NCBI GenBank assembly: GCA_021738725.1 | Contig: JAIPBE010000005.1 | Coordinates: forward strand, 10,174 to 74,173 | Length of the DNA: 64,000 bases | Reading direction: 5' to 3' | Source of the DNA: Saprospiraceae bacterium | GTDB taxonomy: Bacteria > Bacteroidota > Bacteroidia > Chitinophagales > Saprospiraceae | Part shown: piece by piece, positions 3 to 12,010 of the stretch | Numbering within the stretch: the first letter of the stretch is position 1 | Layout: each line of letters starts with the position of its first letter | Program-made: the position numbers and the translations under genes | The notes under the pieces: generated by a model | Database searches by the model: none | What the model saw: only the letters and a program-made list of their open reading frames with translations | What the model was told of the DNA's origin: nothing

Positions 3-2189
3 TACACCACAGGAAGTGCCGTCATCCCTTGTACGGATCCATCCTATTCCATCGAGGTCATAGTGAACGATTGCAATTGTCCAAGTACAGCCATCAATCC
101 TCCAGCTGATTTGTGCAATGATAACGGGACACTGGATCTCAACACCTTGCTTGTTACCACAGAAGCGGGGGCATGGTCCATCAGTTCAACGCCACCGGGA
201 ACAAATCCGGGCACATTGGTCAATACTACGTTCCAATCAAATGGGAAGGATCCTGGGACCTACACCATCAGGTTTACCTTAGCCACGACACCCCCTGCTG
301 GTTGCCCTGCCTTTGGAGAACAACCATTGAATGTTATACCAGCCCCTTTCGCTACTCTACAACCTCAATTATCGATTTGCAACAGCAACTCCTCCGGCCA
401 GGATCCGACTACACTTAACCTGAGTGACTTTTACCTGACAGGAGACCAAACCGGAACATGGGTGGACCTGACCGGAAGTGGTGCAACCGGCACTCTTCCC
501 GTACTTGATTTTACCGGGGTCACACCTGGTCTGTATCCGTTCACCTACACCACTGGCAGTGCTGTAGCTCCTTGTACCAATCCGTCCTATACAGTGCAGG
601 TCCTGGTGAAAAATTGTCTCTGTCCTGATCTGGATGTCCTCTCGTTTTCAGCTCAATGTAACAGTACGACAAGCCTGGATCTCACCACCCTTATTCAGCA
701 GGCGGCTCCAGGTATTTGGTCGCTCAGTGGCATCCCAGGTGGTACCAACCCGGCAGTACTGAATGGTGCATCACTGGATCTTCAGGATCGTGACCCTGGA
801 AATTACATCCTGACCTACACGCTGCAACCGGCCCCTCCAGCCGGATGTCCGACAGATGTCATGAGCACTGTTCAACTCGCTGATCAACCCATTGCGGGGA
901 TGGCGACTGTTCCTGTCGGGTTCTGTGAGGGTACCAATACCATTGCCAACCTGTCAAATTTGCTGCTTGGTGCTGACCCGGGAGGACAATGGACCTTTGT
1001 AACCGGACCCTCCAACCCGGGAGCTGACTTTGATGCATCTCTTGGTATGGTCAGTACGCAAAACCTCCTGGCCGGGGCGTATTCATTTCAATATGCGATC
1101 ACGGCCCAAGCTCCTTGTCAAAATGTATCGACTACTGTAGGTGTTCAGATCCAGCCGAATCCAGTGGCTGATGCCGGAGTAGACCAGTCTATTGACTGTC
1201 TTCAACCTGTGGTTTCGATCGGGCCTGCAATCACTCCTTCACCCGGACAGATCATCTCCTGGTCCGGACCCGGATTGAATGGCAATTCCACCGCCAACCC
1301 ATCTGTCAATGCGCCTGGTACCTTTATTCTTACTGTGACCGATCCTACATCCGGCTGTTCTTCGACGGATCAGGTTCTGGTCACAGGGAGCAATGATCTG
1401 ATCGTTGCGATAAATGTTGAAGGCAAGGGCAACAGCTGCCCGGGTTCTGCCGATGGATATATCGAAGTGATCAATGTCCAGGGTGGCACAGCTCCTTATC
1501 AATACACTTTGAACGGTGGGACGACCAACAGTACAGGTATGTTTACGCCTGTGACGGGTGGCACCTATCAGGTAAATGTCACGGATGCTATTGGATGCAG
1601 CCGGGATACAACCCTTGTTTTGACTTCTGGATTTGGATTTACCCTTGACCTCGGCCCGGATCAGCAAGTGCTGGCAGGCGCCAACGTACTCATCCAGGCA
1701 TCGATCAATCCTGCCTCGACATCCCTGTTTGAACTGGATTGGAGTCCTGCGCCTCCGGATGGATGTACCACCTGTACAGGGTTCTCATTTTCAGCATCCC
1801 TGGATGTCACCTATTCCCTCGTCGCCACGGATGAAAATGGTTGTACTGCGAGCGATCAGGTACATATAGCCGTCACATTGCCCCGAAGGGTCTTTATTCC
1901 GACAGCATTCTCACCCAACGGAGATGGCCTCAACGACGTATTTTATGTTCAGGGAGGATCGGAAGTCTTGCGCGTGATCGGTCTGCAAATATTCGATCGC
2001 TGGGGGAATGCCGTATTCCGCAGTGATGACACGCCTGTAAACGATTATGAGTATGGTTGGGATGGAACTTTCCGAGGCCGATTTGTCGGACAGGAGGTGT
2101 ACGTCTATGCGGCCGAAGTGGAATTTATTGACGGGTCCACCAGACTGTACAAAGGAGATGTCCTGATCAGTGATTCTCTGGTCAGGTAA
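3..2189 (+). CDS. Giant cell-surface adhesin-like protein, C-terminal part (5-prime end lies upstream of the window). It has Cys-containing ~90-aa repeats, one SprB-type repeat and a T9SS type-B sorting domain.
   Basis: The frame is open from nt 3. YTTGSAVIPCTDPSYSIEVIVNDCNC at the window edge repeats the internal YTTGSAVAPCTNPSYTVQVLVKNCLC, so the GTG at 63 in the ORF track is internal. A GGTAPYQYTLNGG SprB-like motif is present, and the C-terminal sorting signature is listed separately. Confidence 0.85.
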   Translation, partial: YTTGSAVIPCTDPSYSIEVIVNDCNCPSTAINPPADLCNDNGTLDLNTLLVTTEAGAWSISSTPPGTNPGTLVNTTFQSNGKDPGTYTIRFTLATTPPAGCPAFGEQPLNVIPAPFATLQPQLSICNSNSSGQDPTTLNLSDFYLTGDQTGTWVDLTGSGATGTLPVLDFTGVTPGLYPFTYTTGSAVAPCTNPSYTVQVLVKNCLCPDLDVLSFSAQCNSTTSLDLTTLIQQAAPGIWSLSGIPGGTNPAVLNGASLDLQDRDPGNYILTYTLQPAPPAGCPTDVMSTVQLADQPIAGMATVPVGFCEGTNTIANLSNLLLGADPGGQWTFVTGPSNPGADFDASLGMVSTQNLLAGAYSFQYAITAQAPCQNVSTTVGVQIQPNPVADAGVDQSIDCLQPVVSIGPAITPSPGQIISWSGPGLNGNSTANPSVNAPGTFILTVTDPTSGCSSTDQVLVTGSNDLIVAINVEGKGNSCPGSADGYIEVINVQGGTAPYQYTLNGGTTNSTGMFTPVTGGTYQVNVTDAIGCSRDTTLVLTSGFGFTLDLGPDQQVLAGANVLIQASINPASTSLFELDWSPAPPDGCTTCTGFSFSASLDVTYSLVATDENGCTASDQVHIAVTLPRRVFIPTAFSPNGDGLNDVFYVQGGSEVLRVIGLQIFDRWGNAVFRSDDTPVNDYEYGWDGTFRGRFVGQEVYVYAAEVEFIDGSTRLYKGDVLISDSLVR
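1881..2186 (+). other. T9SS type-B C-terminal sorting domain (gliding-motility-associated C-terminal domain)
   Basis: PRRVFIPTAFSPNGDGLNDVFYVQG ... IFDRWGNAVF ... GWDGTFRG ... VYVYAAEV ... YKGDVLI is the remembered signature of the TIGR04131-type CTD. Confidence 0.75.
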
Positions 2190-2259
2190 GCTGACATGTG
2201 ATCATCATCACGAAGGACACCTTGAAAAGGGACATACCTTTGTTGAAATTCAACAACGG

Positions 2260-2685
2260 ATGTCCCTTTTCAAGTCTACCCTGATCCTGTTTGCACTGCT
2301 TTCAGCTGCCGGTTGTGCCCAGCAAACGACCACCACCCAGTCAAATCCTGCAGAGGTAGCTACAACCATTGCCCACGATATTGACGTGAATACCTTCTCC
2401 GGGATGATGGGATCAAAACCGGATCATATCCTCCTTGATGTCCGTTCGCCTGAAGAAACCGCGCAGGCAAAATTGCCCGGCGCGATGGAGATCGATTTCT
2501 ATCAGTCCGACTTCCTGGAGAAAGTCGATCAACTACCGAAAGACAAGCCTGTTTTTGTGTACTGTCGCTCTGGCAATCGGAGTGGGCAGGCGATGGACAA
2601 AATGAAGACCCTTGGTTTTGTAGAAGTATACAACCTCAGTGGTGGAATAACGGCCTGGCAGGCAGCCGGACTTCCAATCCAATAA
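2260..2685 (+). CDS. Rhodanese-like sulfurtransferase domain lipoprotein
   Basis: The active-site loop CRSGNRSG follows VFVYC. The signal/lipobox-like N-terminus is MSLFKSTLILFALLSAAGC. I prefer the ATG at 2260 over the track start at 2170, which overlaps the upstream gene. Confidence 0.8.
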   Translation: MSLFKSTLILFALLSAAGCAQQTTTTQSNPAEVATTIAHDIDVNTFSGMMGSKPDHILLDVRSPEETAQAKLPGAMEIDFYQSDFLEKVDQLPKDKPVFVYCRSGNRSGQAMDKMKTLGFVEVYNLSGGITAWQAAGLPIQ

Positions 2686-2691
2686 ATAAAA

Positions 2692-2718
2692 CCCCGTCCC
2701 GGTAAACCGGAGACGGGG
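2692..2718. terminator. Stem-loop between convergent genes. On the minus strand it is followed by a T-run, making it the intrinsic terminator for the lectin adhesin gene.
   Basis: CCCCGTCCCGG-TAAA-CCGGAGACGGGG forms an ~11-bp stem with one bulge. The minus-strand reading ends in ...GGGGTTTTATTT. Confidence 0.6.
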
Positions 2719-2728
2719 CCAAGGGGGG

Positions 2729-2752
2729 CCGACTCCATATGATCGGAGTCGG
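2729..2752. terminator. Second stem-loop in the same convergent intergenic region
   Basis: CCGACTCC-atatgatc-GGAGTCGG is a perfect 8-bp stem with an 8-nt loop. No adjacent T-run is present. Confidence 0.4.
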
Positions 2753-2774
2753 TTGCTGGTTTTGAGGGTTTCTC

Positions 2775-5700
2775 TTATTGAATGATCAATTTCAGTTGGA
2801 TCTGACTATTCCCTGTCCGCAGATCAAGGAGGTACATCCCGGCGGGTAACCCCGAAATATCAAGATCACACTGACTGGCTACCGGACTCGCCCAGGTCCA
2901 TGACTTGACTCGTTGACCCAATGGATTGAACAAGGATCCTTGTACCGTCTCCGTCCAGTCACCCTCCCAGGTCAGACTGACCCGTTCAGTAGCTGGATTA
3001 GGGAATAGTTTCAGGTCCTGCAACGGAAAGGCACCTTCCAGATCAGTGATCGTGCCCAACTGAACGAGCAGGTCTTCTACTTCGCCCTGCGCAAACAAAC
3101 CACATGATTCGGGTAAGGTTGGATCGCTCTGAATATTGGTGTATTTCACGCTGACGCGGATGAAGGATGGTCCGGCCACTGCAAAATCGGGGACGACGGC
3201 CACAAATGATCGAGGACCTTCACTCAATTCCTTGGCATCATAGATCATTTCACCATAATCCAGGAAATCACCATCCCGGTTCCAGTCAGCCCAGGCCCGG
3301 ATATACGCTGTGAGCGCTTCTCCAGAATATCCGGGGATGACATCAATCGTCACCTCATCATTCCAGGCCAATAGTGGTTCTGTTGCGACAGATCCACCCC
3401 AGCCACAGTTGTTTCCATTGTTGAACGGCTGACCTTGCAAGGATACTTCCTGCACCCATAAGCCTTCCGTACTCTCTCCCCTGCTCTCACAGCTTGAACC
3501 ACCGCTGAGCGGGATTATATGAATCGTGAATATGCAGAAACCAGAATTTCCGCATACATCATCTGCCCAATACTGGACTTCTGTTTCACCGGGATAGTAC
3601 GTATCACCGGGATAATGCGTGGCCGTCAATTCAAAGTCACTGCAGTTGTCGGTCACCTGAGGTTCATTCCAGAAAACAACCACCGGACACCATTCTTCGG
3701 TATAGACATATATATCCTGGGGACAGCTATCAAAAAGTGGAGCTTCCTCATCTCCGGTTTGGACCCACTGCACACAGGAAACCGTCTTACTGGTATCGTT
3801 CAATACCGTCAGCGTCCAGGTCCGGCCGATCTTGGCAGAACCAGGGCATCCAGATGAATCCATGATCCAATCGCTATAAGTCAGATCCAGCACGCCACAA
3901 TTGTCCGGACCTGTCAGAGTTGGCTCGCCTGCGACGGAGGGGTCTATCGGATCTCCAGGGCAGGCCTGGTACTTGCCAGGGCACTGCATCTCCGGCAATA
4001 CGCAACATTCTTCTATTGTCACGGTAAAGCTGCAGATCGCTTTGTTTCCACACTCATCGAGGACCGTATAGGTAACAGTGGTGACACCCTCCTGAAATAC
4101 ACTACCCGGAGAATGACTGGCCAGAATGGTCGCAGGACTGCAATTGTCCATGGCGCCTGGAGGATTCCAATCGACGATCGCCTCACAATCCTGATTAGGT
4201 TCTACCGTAATATTCGCCGGACACTCCCAGACCACCGGTGGTGTTTTATCCAACTGGGTGATCGATTGTGAAGCAGTAGAGACATTGCCACAGTCATCTT
4301 CTGCTGTCCAGGTCCGAATGGTCACCTTGCCCTCTTCACAAGCGACACCGTAGGTGGAATCCTGGTAGATCAGGGTCACTGACCCACAATTATCGGATGT
4401 CGCCGGGTTCCCGAAAGGCAAGGACGCTTTTGGACAGATGGTCACATCATCAGGGACATTGGAGATCACCGGAGGTAGTTTATCCTCCAGAACGATCCAT
4501 TGTATGCAAGTGGCAAACAGTCCTGGCTGGGCATCAAAATATGACTTCCAGGTCAGCTTGATGGTTTGATTCCAACAGTTACCCATGCTGATCACCTCAT
4601 CGTCAAAAGAGACCACGACATTCCCACAGGGGCCATCCGGAGTGGATGTGGTGGCAAATCCAGTGACCAGTGGTGAGGCTGATTCTTCCGGACATCCCAG
4701 GAAATCAGGGGGACAGATGATCGCGGGCGCTTTGCAACATGTCGTTACGGTCACCTTGAAAGAACATTGCGTTTTGTTACCACAAGCATCCACGAATGTA
4801 TAGGTGACGATGGTTGTTCCTTCATAAAATGTGCTGCCAGGTTGGTGCGTCACGGTTGTCGTGACACTCCCACAGTTGTCCATGGGGATGGGTGCCGCCC
4901 AACCGACCTTGACACTGCAATCCGGGCCAGGAGCCACCGTTACATCATTCGGACAATCCCAGATCGTCGGCGGCTCCTTGTCTTCCAGATAAATGTATTG
5001 GACACAAGTGCTGTAGAGCTGCGGGTTGATATCAAAAGATGCTTTCCAGATTCGTTTGATCACCTTATCCCAGCAATTCCCCTGGCTGAGGATCTGGTCC
5101 GACCAGGTGATCAAGACCTTGCCACAGGGGCCATCCGGTGTCCATGACATGGCCCAACCTGTTGTATTGGGGTCCATCGGCGTATCCGGACAGCCGTAAA
5201 AATCATCCGGACACTGGATCTCTGGTCCTTGATAACAACAATTCTTGACGGTCACGGAGAAACTGCATGTGGCCATCTGTCCGCATCCATCTGTCGCCTT
5301 GTAAGTAATTACAGTCGTACCGACCGGGAAGACACTGCCCGACGGAGGACCGGATAACTGAACGATGGATTCGCAGGGGATCTCCATGATAAACTCGCGT
5401 TTGGTATTCCCCAACTCATCCGACCAGAATCCGTCCGGATGGATGATTGTATAATCTTCATTGTAAAATCCTCCATTATCCGGTTGGCCCGGTATCCAAC
5501 GAGTGAAGGCTAAAGGGTCATTGTTGACCCAGGCGAACTGACCTTCCACCTGTTCATCCGTCAAACCGATCCAGGCAGTCGTGCCCATCAATTTGGAAGC
5601 CAGCCAACTGTTCTCCGCCTCCGAGTTGATGACTGCCAGATGTCCACCTTCGGAGAGAGCGAGTGCCTGACTGATACCCCATTCGTGTTTTTGTTGGGAA

Positions 5701-7274
5701 CAGTAATAGTGAGAGCCCTGGTATTCTCCCATATAGATATATCCGGAGATGGGATCACCGTCGGGGCAATCCTCACAACATGACCAGATCGTGGGGAAAT
5801 TCCAAGAATACGTTGCCCCGTTCTTGCCAGATTGACAATCCAGGGTGACATCATCCGGGCATTCGAGGGAAATTCCTCCGGATACAACCACATTGAAGCT
5901 GCAGTACGCGATGTTGCCACAATCATCGGTGATCTTGTATTTGATTTCTGTCGAACCCAGTGGGAAGATGGATCCCGGCGGCGGTCCTTTGATCTGTTCG
6001 ATGTGTAAACAGGGCACTTCGATGATACACTCTTTATAGGCCTGCATATCGATTGTTTTCCATTTTCCACCCGCCAAAAGGGTGACAACATCTTCATTTC
6101 CGGTGATATTTTCCGGTTGGCCTACAGCCCAATTGAAGTAACCTGTTGGTTGATTATTGGCCCAGACAAACTGTCCCTCAGAAGCCAGGTCATTCAACCC
6201 GATAAAAGCATCAGGCAATTGGAGTATACCTGCCAAATATTGGTTTTCTGCAGCGGTGCCGATACTGGCCAGATAGCCGCCATAGGAGGCGGCATAAGAC
6301 TGGCCGGTTGTCCATTGGAAGGGTGAATTCGTACAATAATAATGGGAGCCGTTGAATGAGCCCATATCAATGGTATTCGGCGGCACCGAACCACACTTTC
6401 CACAGACTGTACTGCCTGTAGGTAGCGCCCATGTGACCACCGCACCATTGATAACCGGCTGGCAGTTCACATGAATGTCATCCGGGCACTCCACTTCAAT
6501 ATTGGGCAGTACCGTAACTGAAAAGGAGCAAAGCACTTGATTGCCACACGGATCTGATACCTGATAGCTGATCAGGGTCGTGCCGATCGGAAAAAAGGAG
6601 CCACTCGGGAGGCCCGCCGTCTGGATAATCTGTACACAAGGCACTTCAGCAATAAAATGCATTTTCTTCAACACCTCCACATCCTGCCAGTATCCATTCG
6701 AAGACATGGCCACTGCATCCTGCTCTGATAGACCATTCCCATTATCAGGCTGTCCGATATACCAATTGGTATAGTTGACAGATTCTCCACTATGCCATTG
6801 ATAGTTGCCTTCCAGCGTCTGATCATGCAAGCCAATAAACGCTTGAATGCCCGGGATCTGCATGGCGATAAAGGCATTTTCTTCCGGACTGTTGATAGAC
6901 GCCAGATATCCACCTTGATTCGCAATGAACATCGCTGCTGAATTCCAATCTGTGATATTCAGGGATTGGAAGTAATGATGGCCATTGAATTCACCCAGAG
7001 ATACACAACCGGGCAGGTTGTCAATACACAACGGGCAATCGGACTTTACCTGGATCGAACCCCAGGAAACATAGGCTCCGTTCAATCCATTTGCGGCATA
7101 AACGCTGATCGGTGCAGGGCAATTGACTTCCAATCCACCCAAAACGGGGCGGGATTCAACTGAAATGTCTTCTGATGATGGAAAAAAATGGGCTGATGCC
7201 ACGTGTACCAGGCTGAACCATAGACTCAGACCAAGCACAAGCGCACGCCACCGGCGGTGTACCAGTGTTTGCAT
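2775..7274 (-). CDS. T9SS-sorted multidomain adhesin with 3 C-type lectin domains interleaved with HYR-like modules, 3 larger Cys-rich/HYR modules, a GEVED domain and a type-A CTD
   Basis: The start is taken at MQTLVHRRWRALVLGLSLWFSLVHVASA (signal peptide, ATG 7274-7272) rather than 7331. CTLD signatures WIGL/FIGL..GQPDN..ED..W.D..F.E.PC occur three times. HYR-like PPTIWDCPNDVTVAPGPDCSVKVGWAAPIPMDNCGSVTTTVTHQPGSTFYEGTTIVTYTFVDACGNKTQCSFKVTV is present. GEVED and the Por-tail are listed separately. Confidence 0.85.
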   Translation of the reverse strand: MQTLVHRRWRALVLGLSLWFSLVHVASAHFFPSSEDISVESRPVLGGLEVNCPAPISVYAANGLNGAYVSWGSIQVKSDCPLCIDNLPGCVSLGEFNGHHYFQSLNITDWNSAAMFIANQGGYLASINSPEENAFIAMQIPGIQAFIGLHDQTLEGNYQWHSGESVNYTNWYIGQPDNGNGLSEQDAVAMSSNGYWQDVEVLKKMHFIAEVPCVQIIQTAGLPSGSFFPIGTTLISYQVSDPCGNQVLCSFSVTVLPNIEVECPDDIHVNCQPVINGAVVTWALPTGSTVCGKCGSVPPNTIDMGSFNGSHYYCTNSPFQWTTGQSYAASYGGYLASIGTAAENQYLAGILQLPDAFIGLNDLASEGQFVWANNQPTGYFNWAVGQPENITGNEDVVTLLAGGKWKTIDMQAYKECIIEVPCLHIEQIKGPPPGSIFPLGSTEIKYKITDDCGNIAYCSFNVVVSGGISLECPDDVTLDCQSGKNGATYSWNFPTIWSCCEDCPDGDPISGYIYMGEYQGSHYYCSQQKHEWGISQALALSEGGHLAVINSEAENSWLASKLMGTTAWIGLTDEQVEGQFAWVNNDPLAFTRWIPGQPDNGGFYNEDYTIIHPDGFWSDELGNTKREFIMEIPCESIVQLSGPPSGSVFPVGTTVITYKATDGCGQMATCSFSVTVKNCCYQGPEIQCPDDFYGCPDTPMDPNTTGWAMSWTPDGPCGKVLITWSDQILSQGNCWDKVIKRIWKASFDINPQLYSTCVQYIYLEDKEPPTIWDCPNDVTVAPGPDCSVKVGWAAPIPMDNCGSVTTTVTHQPGSTFYEGTTIVTYTFVDACGNKTQCSFKVTVTTCCKAPAIICPPDFLGCPEESASPLVTGFATTSTPDGPCGNVVVSFDDEVISMGNCWNQTIKLTWKSYFDAQPGLFATCIQWIVLEDKLPPVISNVPDDVTICPKASLPFGNPATSDNCGSVTLIYQDSTYGVACEEGKVTIRTWTAEDDCGNVSTASQSITQLDKTPPVVWECPANITVEPNQDCEAIVDWNPPGAMDNCSPATILASHSPGSVFQEGVTTVTYTVLDECGNKAICSFTVTIEECCVLPEMQCPGKYQACPGDPIDPSVAGEPTLTGPDNCGVLDLTYSDWIMDSSGCPGSAKIGRTWTLTVLNDTSKTVSCVQWVQTGDEEAPLFDSCPQDIYVYTEEWCPVVVFWNEPQVTDNCSDFELTATHYPGDTYYPGETEVQYWADDVCGNSGFCIFTIHIIPLSGGSSCESRGESTEGLWVQEVSLQGQPFNNGNNCGWGGSVATEPLLAWNDEVTIDVIPGYSGEALTAYIRAWADWNRDGDFLDYGEMIYDAKELSEGPRSFVAVVPDFAVAGPSFIRVSVKYTNIQSDPTLPESCGLFAQGEVEDLLVQLGTITDLEGAFPLQDLKLFPNPATERVSLTWEGDWTETVQGSLFNPLGQRVKSWTWASPVASQCDLDISGLPAGMYLLDLRTGNSQIQLKLIIQ
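2778..3020 (-). other. T9SS type-A C-terminal sorting domain (Por secretion tail)
   Basis: LKLFPNPATERVSLTW ... GLPAGMYLLDLRTGNSQIQLKLIIQ at the extreme C-terminus. Confidence 0.75.
3069..3464 (-). other. GEVED domain
   Basis: The eponymous motif is FAQGEVEDLLVQ. Codons GGC GAA GTA GAA GAC were verified at 3086-3072. It is preceded by ..AWADWNRDGDF... The domain boundaries are approximate. Confidence 0.55.
5373..5735 (-). other. C-type lectin domain 3 (QPD motif)
   Basis: YQGSHYYCS...GGHLAVINSEAENSWL...AWIGLTDEQVEGQFAW...PGQPDNGGFYNEDY....GFWSDE....EFIMEIPC. Confidence 0.7.
6009..6368 (-). other. C-type lectin domain 2 (QPE variant)
   Basis: FNGSHYYCT...GGYLASIGTAAENQYL...AFIGLNDLASEGQFVW...GQPENITGNEDVV..GGKWKT....ECIIEVPC. 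Confidence 0.65.
6636..7010 (-). other. C-type lectin domain 1 (QPD motif)
   Basis: FNGHHYFQS..W..A...A...GGYLASINSPEENAFI...AFIGLHDQTLEGNYQW..G..V.YTNW..GQPDN....EQDAV.....GYWQDV.....HFIAEVPC. The QPD codons CAG CCT GAT were verified at 6752-6744. Confidence 0.7.
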
Positions 7275-7420
7275 TGTACAGGAAATTTTGGTAGTAAAAG
7301 AGTCAGTAAACCACATCGTCAAACAGGACAATGGGACATGGTTCTTAGAGGGGGGTGAATAAATCCGAAGATCTGTTCACATCAAAGTTAATTCAAATAT
7401 GATTATTCCAAAGCTTTTAG

Positions 7421-8107
7421 GTGAATTACTTACTTGCTGACTCCAAACGGATGTTCCTACCTTGTCTTCCGATGACCGCCTATTGTACGCATTTGCATTA
7501 TTGGCCAGCTTGTCAATGGCTGGCGCCACTGGCATCCGGTAAGACATTGATCCTGGAAGCACATGATCATTACCAGAAGAAAAGTGGTCGCAACAGGACA
7601 ACCATCCTCAGTTCATACGGGCCCACAAAGCTCTCCGTTCCACTCCTCAAGGGCAAACATCAACAGATGCCCTATCAGGATGTGCAGATTGCCTGGGATG
7701 CCCCCTGGAATCGAACCCACTGGCGAACGATCCGATCCTGCTATGGCCGAGCACCATTCTACGAACATTTTGAAGATGATCTGGCGGTGCTCTATGAGCG
7801 AAAGGACGTTTTCTTGTGGGATTGGAATCTCGCATTATTCCACTGGCTCTTGCATCAAATGCAACTACCGGAAGACTTCAACTTCACAGCCTCCTGGAAG
7901 ACAGTTCTGGATTCGGACACCTTGGATCTTCGTCAGATCGATATGGATAAGGTTACGGATCACATTCTTTCACAGACTCCCTATCCCCAGGTCTTTGCAG
8001 ATCGTCATGGATTCACACCGGGGTTGAGTGCCCTGGATTTGCTATTTTGCGCAGGTCCTCAGGCCCGGATGATCCTCCGGAAAATGAACCGGATCGAACC
8101 AGAATGA
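7421..8107 (+). CDS. WbqC-like family protein
   Basis: HDHYQKKSGRNRTTILSSYGPTKLSVPL and W..HWRTIRSCYGRAPFYEHFEDDL resemble the remembered WbqC family core (yqKqsyrNR...ltvP; ...aYg.sPfFe.y). The start is uncertain (GTG 7421 or ATG 7451) and the N-terminus is divergent. Confidence 0.6.
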   Translation: MNYLLADSKRMFLPCLPMTAYCTHLHYWPACQWLAPLASGKTLILEAHDHYQKKSGRNRTTILSSYGPTKLSVPLLKGKHQQMPYQDVQIAWDAPWNRTHWRTIRSCYGRAPFYEHFEDDLAVLYERKDVFLWDWNLALFHWLLHQMQLPEDFNFTASWKTVLDSDTLDLRQIDMDKVTDHILSQTPYPQVFADRHGFTPGLSALDLLFCAGPQARMILRKMNRIEPE

Positions 8108-9837
8108 CCGAACTCCTCGACCAACAGATCCACCAATGGCGTCAGCGATTACAATTGCTGATGACCAGCCTCGCTCATTTTATCGGACAAGGTGAAAATG
8201 AAGACCTCCAAAGGACGGTCCAGGACCTCATGCACCGATCTGCCGATCCATTCCTTTTTGTGATTGTAGGGGAAGTCAAAGCCGGGAAATCCAGTTTTAT
8301 CAATGCCCTCCTGGATACTGGAACCGAGATCTGCAAGGTCGCCCCTCAACCGATGACCGATTGCATTCAGCAGATCATTTATGGGGAGACGGAGGAACAA
8401 ACCCAGATCAATCCTTACCTCCGTATCGTCAAACAGCCGGTCGACATCCTGAAGGATTTTGCCATTGTGGATACGCCTGGCACGAATACTATCGTCCAAC
8501 ATCATCAGGAGATCACGGAGCGATTTATTCCCGCTTCTGATCTGATCGTCTTCGTTTTTGAGGCAAAAAATCCCTACCGGCAATCCAGCTGGGAATTCCT
8601 TTCGTTTATTCGGGACGATTGGCGGAAGAAGATTCTCTTTGTCCTCCAACAAAAAGATCTGTTGACAGATGAGGAATTACGCATCAACACTGCAGGTGTG
8701 CATCAACATGCCGTCGACCAGGGGATCGTAGACCCGGTGGTTTTCTCGGTCAGTGCACGAGATGAGATCAATGGACATAAAGACATCAGTGGTTTCGGAC
8801 CCTTGCGCGAACACATCCAGTCGACCGTTACCGGAGGAAAGGCACCATTGCTCAAAATGGAAAGCATCCTGCTGACTGCCGAGACCCTGCTTGACAAGAT
8901 GGATATGGGCATCGTCGACCGCAAGAATCAATGGGAAAGTGACAAAGCCTTTCGCATTCGGATCGGTGAGGCCCTGGATCAGCAAGGACTGCTTTCGCAA
9001 AATCAGGTACACACCCTGATCGATGCCATCACCCGCGACTTTCACCGGATCACCACCACATTCGGTGTTGAACTGTCAGAAGGCCTTTCCTTCCTGACTG
9101 TGATTAATAAAACGATTGCCGGAATTTTCTCTAAACAAGCCACATTGAAAGAATGGCTGCAGGATCTCATCCGACGGTTGGAACATGCCCTTCAGACCGA
9201 TCTGCGGATGAAGCTGGATCAACAGATCGTTGATGTGGCGGACAGGATCCAGCAAATGGCACGCGTCATTGAATATGAGATTCGAAACAGCCCGAACGAA
9301 CTATCTCTGGATCACGAGATCTTCAGTGACATCGCTGAACGGCGTGCCCAGGTATTACGGGAATTATTGGCCTCCTTCACATCCTTTCTTCAGCGTGGCG
9401 AGAATTTCATGCCGGATGATGTATTTGATGCTTCCAAAAACATGGCCCCGCAAGTGGCTGCAGGTAGCGGAATTGCAGTGATTGGTGTCGTCCTTGCTGC
9501 GGTGACCAAAGGAATGGTCTTTGATATTACCGGGGGTATTCTGACAGGACTGGGTGTCCTGTTTGCAGGGATCACCTTCGGCTTCCAACGTCGATCCATT
9601 TTGCGGAAGTACAAAAATGAAATGGCTCAAGGCGAATCCCAGCTGCATCAAGAGCTTGAGTCAAAACTGCTCAGTTATATCCAAACGATCCGCCAACGGA
9701 TCGAATCCAATTTTGATCGATTTGATCTGCATCTGCAAAGAGAGGAAAAAGATATCCTGCGGTTGGAAAATGACCTGAAACAAATCCGGAACAACCGACA
9801 GAATCTTCTCCTGGAATTACAGAATAGTCTGGTCTAA
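8104..9837 (+). CDS. Bacterial dynamin-like GTPase (dynamin family) with a C-terminal membrane-inserting hairpin
   Basis: The G1 P-loop GEVKAGKS is at 8269-8292, with G3 DTPG and G4-like QQKD. A hydrophobic hairpin (GSGIAVIGVVLAAVTKGMVFDITGGILTGLGVLFAGITFGF, nt ~9445-9585) is followed by a coiled coil. I prefer ATG 8104 (MTELLDQQ), which overlaps the WbqC stop as ATGA, over the track start at 8047. Confidence 0.8.
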   Translation: MTELLDQQIHQWRQRLQLLMTSLAHFIGQGENEDLQRTVQDLMHRSADPFLFVIVGEVKAGKSSFINALLDTGTEICKVAPQPMTDCIQQIIYGETEEQTQINPYLRIVKQPVDILKDFAIVDTPGTNTIVQHHQEITERFIPASDLIVFVFEAKNPYRQSSWEFLSFIRDDWRKKILFVLQQKDLLTDEELRINTAGVHQHAVDQGIVDPVVFSVSARDEINGHKDISGFGPLREHIQSTVTGGKAPLLKMESILLTAETLLDKMDMGIVDRKNQWESDKAFRIRIGEALDQQGLLSQNQVHTLIDAITRDFHRITTTFGVELSEGLSFLTVINKTIAGIFSKQATLKEWLQDLIRRLEHALQTDLRMKLDQQIVDVADRIQQMARVIEYEIRNSPNELSLDHEIFSDIAERRAQVLRELLASFTSFLQRGENFMPDDVFDASKNMAPQVAAGSGIAVIGVVLAAVTKGMVFDITGGILTGLGVLFAGITFGFQRRSILRKYKNEMAQGESQLHQELESKLLSYIQTIRQRIESNFDRFDLHLQREEKDILRLENDLKQIRNNRQNLLLELQNSLV

Positions 9838-9859
9838 ACCACTTCAAAAACGTTACAGA

Positions 9860-12010
9860 ATGCATCGCTTTTTCCTCTTTTTACTATTCAGTTTATCTAT
9901 TATGGTTGCATGTGAACAAGAGCAGGCCCCTGCCTCTTTCCCACCTATCCCGGTCGTATATCCAGGCACACCAACAGAGATGGTAGTGGATACGTATTTT
10001 TCGGTGGCTGTAAAAGATCCGTACCGTTGGTTGGAGGTGGATACCGCGGCGGCTGTCGAAGCCTGGGTGCGCTCCCAGAATGAAGTGACCTTTAACTATC
10101 TGGACCAGATCCCTTTCAGGACGGCCATCCGAGCCCGGTATGAGAAGCTTTTCAACTTTCCTAAGGTCTCAGCACCTCAAAAAGCAGGAGACTACTATTT
10201 CTTTTCAAAGAACGATGGACTTCAGAACCAGGCGATCATTTTCATCCAGAAGGGATTGGAAGGGAAACCTGAAATCTTCCTCGATCCCAATACGCTGTCG
10301 GATGATGGCACCACCGCTGTCGAAATGATCGGGTTCAGCCCGGACAACCGGTATGTGGCCATTTCCCGGTCGGATGCCGGATCCGATTGGAACCAGATCA
10401 GTGTGATCGAGATCGCGACCAAGCGAATGTTGCAAGACCGGTTAGATTGGGTCAAATTCAGTACTGCCGCCTGGACAACAGAAGGCTTCTATTACAGCCG
10501 CATGCCCGAACCCAAACCAGGGATGGAATTGTCACAAGCCAATCAATTCCACAGCGTGTATTATCATCAACTGGGCGACCCGCAGTCTGCTGACAAGCTG
10601 GTGTACAGGAATGAGAAGGCCCCACAAATGTATCATTGGACATCTATTACGGAGGACCTTCAGTACCTGATCATGTATGCAGCTACCGGCTCTGCCGGGT
10701 TTGAAACCTACTACATGGACTTGAAGAACAAGAATGGCAAATTCAAAGCGTTGTTTACTGGCTTTGATTATAAAAACACGATTATCGATCATGTGGATGG
10801 CCGGTTCTTGATCCACAGCAATCAAGATGCCCCGAACTACCGGTTGATCTCCGTTCAGCCAGACAAGAATACACCCGAGGACTGGATAGATGTCATTCCC
10901 CAAAAAGACGATCTGCTGGTCAGCGTCACCACCGGCGGTGGAAAACTGTTCGCGAATTACCTGAAAAATGCCACTACGCGTGTATTCAGATATGAGCCTG
11001 ATGGAAGTCAGGAACAGGAGATCCAAATGCCCGGCCTGGGATCGGCGGAAGGGTTTGCAGGCAAACGCGAGGATGACGTCCTGTTCTATACCTACACATC
11101 CTTTGTGGATCCGGGTTCGATCTTTCGATACAATGTGGAAGACGGAACCAGTGATATATTTTTTCGGACGGAGCTCGCTTTCAATCCAGAAGACTACGAG
11201 GAAGAGCAAGTCTTTTACAAGAGCAAGGATGGCACTTCTGTCTCCATGTTCCTCGTCCATAAAAAAGGCCTCGTCCTGGATGGCAACAACCCTTGTTACC
11301 TCTATGCATATGGCGGATTCAATGTTTCTATGTCACCTTACTTCAGTACATCTCGGATCCTGCTGCTCGAAAACGGAGGAATCTTCGCTATGCCTAATCT
11401 GAGAGGTGGCGGAGAATATGGAGAGGAATGGCATAAAGGTGGCATGCGGGAAAAGAAGCAAAATGTGTTCGATGACATGATTGCTGCAGCAGAATATCTC
11501 ATCGCAGAAGGCTATACCTCATCCAAAAAAATGGCCATTGCCGGAGGATCCAATGGCGGGCTACTGGTCGGCGCCTGTATCAATCAACGTCCCGATCTCT
11601 TTCAAGTCGCCTTTCCGGCTGTAGGTGTAATGGATATGTTACGATATCACAAATTCACTGTGGGATGGGGTTGGATACCAGAATATGGCAGTAGTGAAGA
11701 GGAGGAAATGTTTCCCATCCTCTATGCTTATTCACCTTATCACAATCTTGTAAAAGGGACGCATTATCCCGCTACACTCATCACTACCGCCGATCATGAT
11801 GACAGAGTTGTGCCAGCACATTCGTTCAAGTATGCAGCCATGCTACAGGCTTGCCAGCAGGGAGAAAGACCTGTCCTGATCCGTATTGAAACGAGTGCTG
11901 GTCATGGTGCTGGAAAACCCACATCCAAGATCATTGACGAACAGGCAGACCTCTGGTCATTCTTCTTCTACAACACCGCATCACCAGTGAAGTATCCGAT
12001 CGAAGACTAG
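9860..12010 (+). CDS. Prolyl oligopeptidase (S9A serine peptidase), lipoprotein-type signal
   Basis: The catalytic-Ser motif GGSNGGLL is present, with DHDDRV and SAGHGAGKP (Asp/His of the triad). The N-terminal beta-propeller region is of typical length. The signal is MHRFFLFLLFSLSIMVAC. Confidence 0.9.
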   Translation: MHRFFLFLLFSLSIMVACEQEQAPASFPPIPVVYPGTPTEMVVDTYFSVAVKDPYRWLEVDTAAAVEAWVRSQNEVTFNYLDQIPFRTAIRARYEKLFNFPKVSAPQKAGDYYFFSKNDGLQNQAIIFIQKGLEGKPEIFLDPNTLSDDGTTAVEMIGFSPDNRYVAISRSDAGSDWNQISVIEIATKRMLQDRLDWVKFSTAAWTTEGFYYSRMPEPKPGMELSQANQFHSVYYHQLGDPQSADKLVYRNEKAPQMYHWTSITEDLQYLIMYAATGSAGFETYYMDLKNKNGKFKALFTGFDYKNTIIDHVDGRFLIHSNQDAPNYRLISVQPDKNTPEDWIDVIPQKDDLLVSVTTGGGKLFANYLKNATTRVFRYEPDGSQEQEIQMPGLGSAEGFAGKREDDVLFYTYTSFVDPGSIFRYNVEDGTSDIFFRTELAFNPEDYEEEQVFYKSKDGTSVSMFLVHKKGLVLDGNNPCYLYAYGGFNVSMSPYFSTSRILLLENGGIFAMPNLRGGGEYGEEWHKGGMREKKQNVFDDMIAAAEYLIAEGYTSSKKMAIAGGSNGGLLVGACINQRPDLFQVAFPAVGVMDMLRYHKFTVGWGWIPEYGSSEEEEMFPILYAYSPYHNLVKGTHYPATLITTADHDDRVVPAHSFKYAAMLQACQQGERPVLIRIETSAGHGAGKPTSKIIDEQADLWSFFFYNTASPVKYPIED

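Follow-up and report, generated by a model that had tools for sequence, protein, structure and literature searches.

In RTX adhesins, the adhesive region of the molecule can be recognised by immunoglobulin (Ig)-like 'split domains' from which ligand-binding domains project, and a fucose-binding module carried on such a split domain has been shown experimentally (PMC12077191; PMC10865825). Here we describe a protein of comparable construction that is predicted to leave the cell through the type IX secretion system (T9SS). It is encoded on the minus strand of a 64,000-nt stretch of DNA (contig JAIPBE010000005.1 of assembly GCA_021738725.1, positions 10,174-74,173; referred to below as the window, on which all coordinates are based) from the genome of an uncultured Saprospiraceae bacterium (4.18 Mb, ~98% complete). 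The 1,499-residue product carries three C-type lectin domains (CTLDs), each of which interrupts an HYR domain, followed by a stalk of further Ig-like modules, a GEVED domain and a T9SS type-A C-terminal sorting domain (CTD); it is probably a fibrillar, multivalent lectin adhesin of the cell surface, exported by the T9SS.

The RTX adhesins AhLap (Aeromonas hydrophila), FrhA (Vibrio cholerae) and MpIBP (Marinomonas primoryensis) share with this protein an interrupted Ig-like stalk domain, a sideways-pointing ligand-binding domain with adjacent termini and a long repeat stalk, and their inserts include sugar-binding, Ca2+-dependent modules. They are exported by the type I secretion system (T1SS) and have RTX repeats and an N-terminal retention domain, whereas the present protein has T9SS export signals in the form of a type-A CTD; a Pfam and NCBIfam scan of its 1,499 residues found no T1SS signal, RTX nonapeptide repeats or N-terminal retention domain. 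The host domain here is HYR, the insert is a canonical CTLD, three units stand in direct tandem, and there is no sequence relationship. The protein is built like the RTX split-domain adhesins but is not a member of them. Among the Bacteroidota, RemA of Flavobacterium johnsoniae is an SprB-like motility adhesin with a SUEL/rhamnose-binding-type lectin domain. It is described as a T9SS-secreted mobile surface lectin adhesin (Shrivastava et al. 2012, as cited in PMC11205867). The likeness to RemA lies in the phylum, the T9SS cargo status, the lectin domain on a repeat stalk and the (here predicted) polysaccharide-dependent adhesion or aggregation; the differences are the CTLDs, the type-A CTD and the lack of an adjacent PorP/SprF-like gene in our case. 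The Aureispira 'grappling hook' GhpA, a T9SS substrate from the Saprospiraceae with disulfide-rich Ig-like repeats and a role in cell-cell contact (10.1101/2024.01.29.577165), differs in its size (5,898 aa), its heptameric state, its PorP/PorE-like partners and its lack of a lectin domain, and resembles the present protein at the level of the Ig-like fold. The split-domain principle is already known in RTX adhesins; the present protein is probably a fibrillar lectin adhesin with split-domain display in a T9SS/HYR/CTLD form. If our reading holds, the design is not confined to type I secretion but is also used by adhesins of the type IX system, and split stalk domains would provide a simple guide to the ligand-binding parts of thousands of unannotated giant Bacteroidota T9SS proteins.

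Each lectin domain is nested inside an HYR domain

Profile scans with Pfam and NCBIfam, in which matches were judged against curated gathering cut-offs, found six stretches of HYR (PF02494; E 8e-71) and three of Lectin_C (PF00059; E 2e-37), both above cut-off. Three of the HYR copies are uninterrupted and match the profile over its full length (positions 2-81). The HYR matches of the three lectin-bearing units are limited, in the intact sequence, to profile positions 42-81 at most. When the lectin segment was deleted in silico, the flanks joined and the HYR profile rescanned unit by unit, the match reached as far as 8-81: it grew from 45-81 (36 bits) to 23-81 (43 bits) in unit 1 and from 46-81 (38.5 bits) to 8-81 (51.2 bits) in unit 2, and the score of unit 3 rose from 38.9 to 52.0 bits. 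The same behavior is seen at the level of the family, for which we gathered 157 nested units from this protein and its homologs and compared them profile against profile (hhalign). With the CTLD excised, the alignment of their profile to that of uninterrupted HYR domains spans 73 of 76 columns (probability 99.8%, E 1.2e-29); with the CTLD left in, it is confined to the C-terminal 45 columns. The point at which the chain leaves the HYR domain lies directly after the cysteine of a conserved 'DNC' motif.

For unit 3, AlphaFold2 (AF2) with 37 aligned units as input gave a model (predicted local distance difference test [pLDDT] 92.2, predicted template modeling score [pTM] 0.74) that consists of four strands, an alpha/beta domain with two helices, and four further strands. 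In this model the lectin part has the CTLD double-loop alpha/beta fold with adjacent termini, and a Foldseek search with it returned the carbohydrate-recognition domains (CRDs) of human MGL, CD23, SRCL, ASGR, mincle and langerin, with target-normalized TM scores of 0.85-0.88, 23-32% identity and a root mean square deviation of ~2-2.5 Å (for a predicted model). On the combined evidence of profiles and model, the two flanks of each CTLD are the halves of one HYR domain, split by a complete CTLD. A sequence-only reading of this DNA had described three copies of a serial unit made of a short Cys-rich or HYR-like segment, a lectin domain and an HYR-like module; the three copies are real, but their flanks are one split HYR domain rather than separate modules, and the nested topology, which the excision test brings out by joining the flanks into a single HYR, had been overlooked. 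The same reading's list of domains (CTLDs, HYR, GEVED and a Por-type CTD) is confirmed throughout by Pfam above curated cut-offs, and the possibility it had raised against itself, that profiles would place the lectin-like regions in another fold, did not materialize: Pfam assigns them to Lectin_C, and the top Foldseek matches are vertebrate CRDs. At ~210 aa, the nested unit is compact and well predicted, and suited to probing what bacterial canonical CTLDs bind.

The gene itself is intact and is predicted to encode a secreted surface protein. The minus strand is open from 2775 to 7331 as a single open reading frame (ORF), and translation from the ATG at 7274 yields 1,499 aa; this start is supported because the close full-length homologs (69-85% identity, 100% coverage of the protein) are 1,493-1,503 aa long. 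The N-terminus, MQTLVHRRWRALVLGLSLWFSLVHVASA↓HFF, shows by eye a typical arrangement of n-, h- and c-regions ending in ASA↓H, a predicted Sec-type signal peptide. The GC content of the gene is the same as that of its flanks. The features of the gene are collected in Table 1.

Table 1. Features of the lectin gene, in window coordinates (Lectin_C gathering threshold, 22.6 bits)
Feature	Residues	Position	Strand	Basis
Whole coding sequence	1,499 aa + stop	2775..7274	minus	ORF call and full-length homologs
Predicted Sec signal peptide (…VHVASA↓H)	1-28	7191..7274	minus	read by eye from sequence
Nested unit 1: HYR N-half, CTLD1 (aa 90-213; QPD … WQD), HYR C-half	46-256	6507..7139	minus	Lectin_C 50.9 bits
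Nested unit 2: HYR N-half, CTLD2 (aa 293-422; QPE … WKT), HYR C-half	257-465	5880..6506	minus	Lectin_C 41.1 bits
Nested unit 3: HYR N-half, CTLD3 (aa 502-634; QPD … E … WSD), HYR C-half	466-677	5244..5879	minus	Lectin_C 47.3 bits
Stalk module 1: six-Cys Ig-like domain without Pfam family, complete HYR4	678-845	4740..5243	minus	profiles, AF2, Foldseek
Stalk module 2: six-Cys domain, HYR_4C-like domain (aa 936-1013), HYR5	846-1089	4008..4739	minus	profile scans
Stalk module 3: six-Cys domain, HYR6	1090-1256	3507..4007	minus	profile scans
GEVED-containing domain (motif aa 1397-1401)	1257-1405	3060..3506	minus	PF20009, 46.2 bits
T9SS type-A C-terminal sorting domain	1423-1499	2778..3008	minus	PF18962, TIGR04183

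Distribution of the family and origin of its lectin domains

A search of 5.8 billion proteins retrieved 334 homologs, of which the best 120 were surveyed for architecture. Dozens of homologs combine Lectin_C, HYR, GEVED and CTD in metagenome-assembled genomes (MAGs) of Saprospiraceae and Lewinellaceae, and these are named at most 'HYR domain-containing' or 'lectin-like' proteins. Full nested units, one to three in each protein, occur in ~65 of the 120 homologs among the matches listed, and the nested unit is also present in one Flavobacteriales MAG. The same architecture and the same nested unit are found in the uncharacterised Saprospiraceae/Lewinellaceae MAG proteins P0005 (69% identical over its full length), P0026, P0039 and P0040. 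This appears to be a large but unstudied family that is common in the Saprospiraceae. The isolate names of the closest relatives' MAGs (EsbW, HK-STAS, Ww120) suggest, as the sole basis for this assignment, an origin in activated-sludge wastewater plants. Saprospiraceae attach to filaments and flocs, and the structure of flocs and biofilms may be influenced by adhesins of this kind.

Two variant architectures stand beside the nested form. In the Saprospiraceae proteins P0089, P0094, P0101, P0107 and P0111, non-nested CTLDs occur together with Kazal-type inhibitor domains and HYR, and the CTLDs of these Kazal-type proteins share one well-supported clade with a few nested CTLDs. In P0068, P0078, P0084, P0088 and P0103, CotH and a lamin-tail domain precede an HYR array, one nested CTLD unit, GEVED and CTD.

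The lectin gene is the only Lectin_C carrier in its own genome. Beyond that genome, Lectin_C occurs in 13 of 300 genomes of a phylum sample (~4%); within the same family, 57 of 150 genera sampled carry it, and it was found in none of 14 control genomes; HYR is present in at least five other large ORFs of the same genome. Of the two domain types, described as predominantly metazoan and uncommon in bacteria, Lectin_C is indeed rare in the phylum sample but common in this family, and HYR is not rare in bacteria. To call these modules eukaryote-like overstates the case: both are ordinary surface-protein parts in this bacterial family, and the protein is not a striking instance of eukaryote-to-bacterium mimicry.

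The sequence-only reading had left open whether the lectin domains reflect ancient transfer or convergence. In phmmer searches of the PDB, single CTLDs of the protein match single vertebrate CRDs with E values of 1e-15 to 1e-12; both groups carry the WIGL, E-N and Ca-site motifs. Convergence with animal CTLDs can be dismissed because the sequence similarity is significant and the motifs and (as modeled) the fold are held in common; the two groups are homologous. No donor of a transfer can be named from the phylogeny of the CTLDs (125 columns, with four metazoan rows, all from one fish protein), a candidate line of argument that we rejected: deep nodes of the tree do not resolve, and the four fish CTLDs group together on a long branch whose placement is weakly supported. 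At shallower depth, each of the three CTLDs pairs with the same-position CTLD of the orthologs with strong support, which dates the triplication as old.

Lectin sites, proposed display and competing explanations

The sorting signal predicted at the C-terminus is matched by PF18962 (Por_Secre_tail; aa 1423-1498, 35.1 bits against a cut-off of 27) and by NCBIfam TIGR04183 (T9SS type A sorting domain; 32.3 bits against 23), and the genome encodes SprA (2,299 bits), PorU (1,154 bits) and GldM (286 bits), all above cut-offs, indicating that the type-A CTD read from the sequence is present and that it lies in a T9SS-proficient genome. The removal of type-A CTDs by PorU, with attachment to the surface, is established in Porphyromonas. 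We propose that the protein would pass through the Sec system to the periplasm, where the SprA translocon would recognise the CTD, and that PorU would remove the CTD and anchor the resulting C-terminus on the outside of the cell; the N-terminus would be distal because the C-terminus is held in this way. The mature chain would form a rod of ten beta-sandwich domains (three each of the split HYR, six-Cys Ig-like and intact HYR kinds, plus one HYR_4C-like), followed by GEVED. In each of the three distal HYR domains the chain exits after the 'DNC' cysteine, forms a complete CTLD and returns to complete the HYR sandwich. The termini of a CTLD lie side by side, with the Ca2+/sugar site at the opposite pole, and each lectin would therefore project sideways from the stalk with its site facing outward. 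Three such heads would allow multivalent, probably Ca2+-dependent, low-affinity binding of glycans, likely targets being polysaccharides or glycoproteins on other cells, on filaments or in the floc matrix.

The residues of the lectin sites bear on this proposal. Each of the three CTLDs retains the residues equivalent to those of Ca2+ site 1, namely D in WIGLxD, E in xEG, N following QPx and D in E/Q-D. At site 2, the QPD, QPE and QPD motifs stand at residues 175-177, 386-388 and 597-599, respectively, and the full sets read QPD/Q(E)/WQD in CTLD1, QPE/E/WKT in CTLD2 and QPD/E/WSD in CTLD3. The site-2 consensus over the 157 family units is QPN … Q/E-D … WND (Q in 130 units, N in 124, WN in 100 and D in 137), with glutamine at positions where animal CTLDs hold glutamate. 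CTLD1 and CTLD3 retain most Ca-site-2 ligands, and site 2 of CTLD2 is degenerate; judged from these residues, CTLD1 and CTLD3 could plausibly bind sugar in a Ca2+-dependent way, whereas for CTLD2 this is doubtful. The vertebrate CRDs (MGL, ASGR, CD23, SRCL and the mannose-receptor family) belong to the same Pfam family, have the same fold and share QPD-type motifs, but differ from the present domains in holding E rather than Q at site 2, in their four canonical cysteines and in an intact WND; they also stand in series or on a coiled-coil neck, whereas the CTLDs here are nested inside another domain.

Several observations weigh against a sugar-binding adhesin displayed in this manner. Where the family has WND, this protein has WQD, WKT and WSD, and CTLD2 is without two site-2 ligands. 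In comparison with fish mannose-receptor CTLDs, the four canonical CTLD cysteines (the C1-C4 and C2-C3 disulfides) are all replaced; conserved cysteines are found instead at the entry to the insert, in beta1 and at the exit from the insert. The canonical four are likewise lacking across the 157 family units, and C38 and C169 (unit numbering) may form a clamp disulfide. The stacking Trp after QPD is missing, and a galactose-type specificity from QPD is not secure because that residue is absent. The packing of the HYR halves against each other we infer from the profiles and from short flanking strands modeled with high confidence. In most relatives the lectin units adjoin GEVED and the CTD, which places them close to the cell and not at the distal end. 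The gene neighbours are unrelated and give no functional hint, and a literature search on CTLD/HYR T9SS proteins found nothing relevant and no experimental study of any family member.

The position of the lectin units raises the alternative that they bind the cell's own surface glycans (lipopolysaccharide, capsule or O-glycosylated proteins), in the service of a surface layer or sheath, self-aggregation or filament bundling. In most relatives (P0008-P0050), three to ten copies of a six-Cys domain plus HYR are followed by two nested units that directly adjoin GEVED and CTD, closest to the outer membrane, and binding to own glycans fits as well as binding to foreign ones because the lectins of most relatives are cell-proximal. 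Bacteroidota surface proteins are, moreover, commonly O-glycosylated (discussed in 10.1101/2024.01.29.577165), and RemA, itself a T9SS lectin adhesin, is reported to cause cell-cell aggregation through polysaccharide binding (PMC11205867). We nevertheless regard this alternative as unlikely, given that in the present protein and its closest relatives (P0002-P0007 and P0051) the three nested units come first, at the distal N-terminus, and that the most distal CTLD evolves fastest (CTLD1 is 59% identical to its counterpart in P0005, making it the most divergent domain, against 84-91% for the stalk HYRs), a pattern that fits variable foreign ligands better.

Departures from the canonical site could also mean that the CTLDs do not bind carbohydrate at all, and instead, like many CTLDs of animals, recognise a protein, a mineral or some other ligand, or that CTLD2 at least is structural. 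WND is degenerate in all three domains, with QPE…WKT in CTLD2, glutamine takes the place of the usual glutamate ligands family-wide, and the canonical disulfides are absent; set against this, all three retain the Ca-site-1 residues, the 157 units conserve QPN/D … D … WND, and the best structural matches are all sugar-binding CRDs, and we hold this explanation to be quite unlikely. Least probable, and in our view very improbable, is a role in nutrition, in which a released or surface-held protein would capture glycans and keep polysaccharides or glycoproteins within reach of hydrolases that act on them. Hydrolases and carbohydrate-binding proteins are numerous among T9SS cargos (PMC11205867), and the GEVED and CTD tail is common to T9SS metallopeptidase models, but the protein has no catalytic domain, its neighbourhood offers no SusC/D, glycoside hydrolase or peptidase operon partner, and a long Ig-like stalk is typical of adhesins. 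A surface lectin adhesin directed at other cells or their matrix is the explanation we prefer, in keeping with the glycan-binding adhesin that the sequence-only reading had proposed. We give little credence to a more far-reaching conjecture: that the HYR-split CTLD unit is the T9SS's independently evolved counterpart of the RTX split-domain device, that these Cys-free CTLDs, whose QPN / Q / WND site carries little charge, bind glycans through a chemistry unlike that of animal C-type lectins (for example, with a weaker or different metal dependence), and that the Saprospiraceae CTLD radiation is an old bacterial lineage and not a recent animal import. If such an old lineage were real, it would bear on where canonical CTLDs arose.

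Stalk, tail and genomic surroundings

Each of the three larger modules that follow the nested units opens with a six-cysteine domain of ~90 aa and closes with an uninterrupted HYR domain. Three such modules had been recognised from the sequence, with lengths estimated at 165-230 aa; the number stands, but the lengths are 168, 244 and 167 aa, and the middle module contains an extra HYR_4C-like domain. The Cys-rich residue pattern proposed for them agrees with the invariant columns of 33 aligned modules (C2, C10, C17, G28, C39, D48, C56, R63, W65, C79, Q81, D87 and P91). An AF2 model of stalk module 1 (pLDDT 95.7) consists of two beta-sandwich domains, and the best PDB matches to it in Foldseek are tandem Ig/cadherin-like adhesin stalks (SraP, Rib), cadherins and a chitinase. 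Single six-Cys domains had no match when scanned against Pfam, and a hidden Markov model made from them matches the HYR_4C-like module weakly (13 bits). We rejected the idea that the six-Cys domain is a divergent HYR (hhalign probability 1.5%, no Pfam match, and an Ig-like sandwich in the AF2 model), and we treat these domains as an undescribed, putative Ig-like stalk domain.

The Pfam match to GEVED (PF20009) covers aa 1324-1402 with 46.2 bits against a cut-off of 24.4, and a sequence search of the PDB found no solved relative of the region. The definition of GEVED places it among the partner or stalk domains found in fibrillar adhesins (PMC10952558). The tail formed by GEVED and CTD (aa 1257-1499; nt 2778-3506) can be aligned with the C-termini of two NCBIfam peptidase models, T9SS-dependent M36 and Leptospira-type M4 thermolysin; this suggests a generic, reusable pre-CTD cassette.

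All neighbours of the lectin gene lie in other transcription units, and their synteny is kept among close relatives only. Convergent with the gene are a rhodanese gene (2170-2685) and the end of a giant CHU_C protein; divergent from it are genes for WbqC, a dynamin-like GTPase and a prolyl oligopeptidase. Neither a PorP/SprF-like gene nor an operon partner of the kinds named above was found among the neighbouring genes. Elsewhere in the genome, a 3,210-aa paralog (1166-10798 of its own locus, minus strand) carries many divergent HYR-like repeats and a type-A CTD, together with an SprB repeat and a dockerin-like stretch. The half-length HYR matches in this paralog were considered as candidates for further HYR domains with inserts and were rejected, being divergent N-halves with normal spacing. 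The giant CHU_C protein at the edge of the window is represented by its C-terminal 728 aa (3-2189, plus strand), which contain an SprB repeat and a CHU_C (type-B) T9SS sorting domain.

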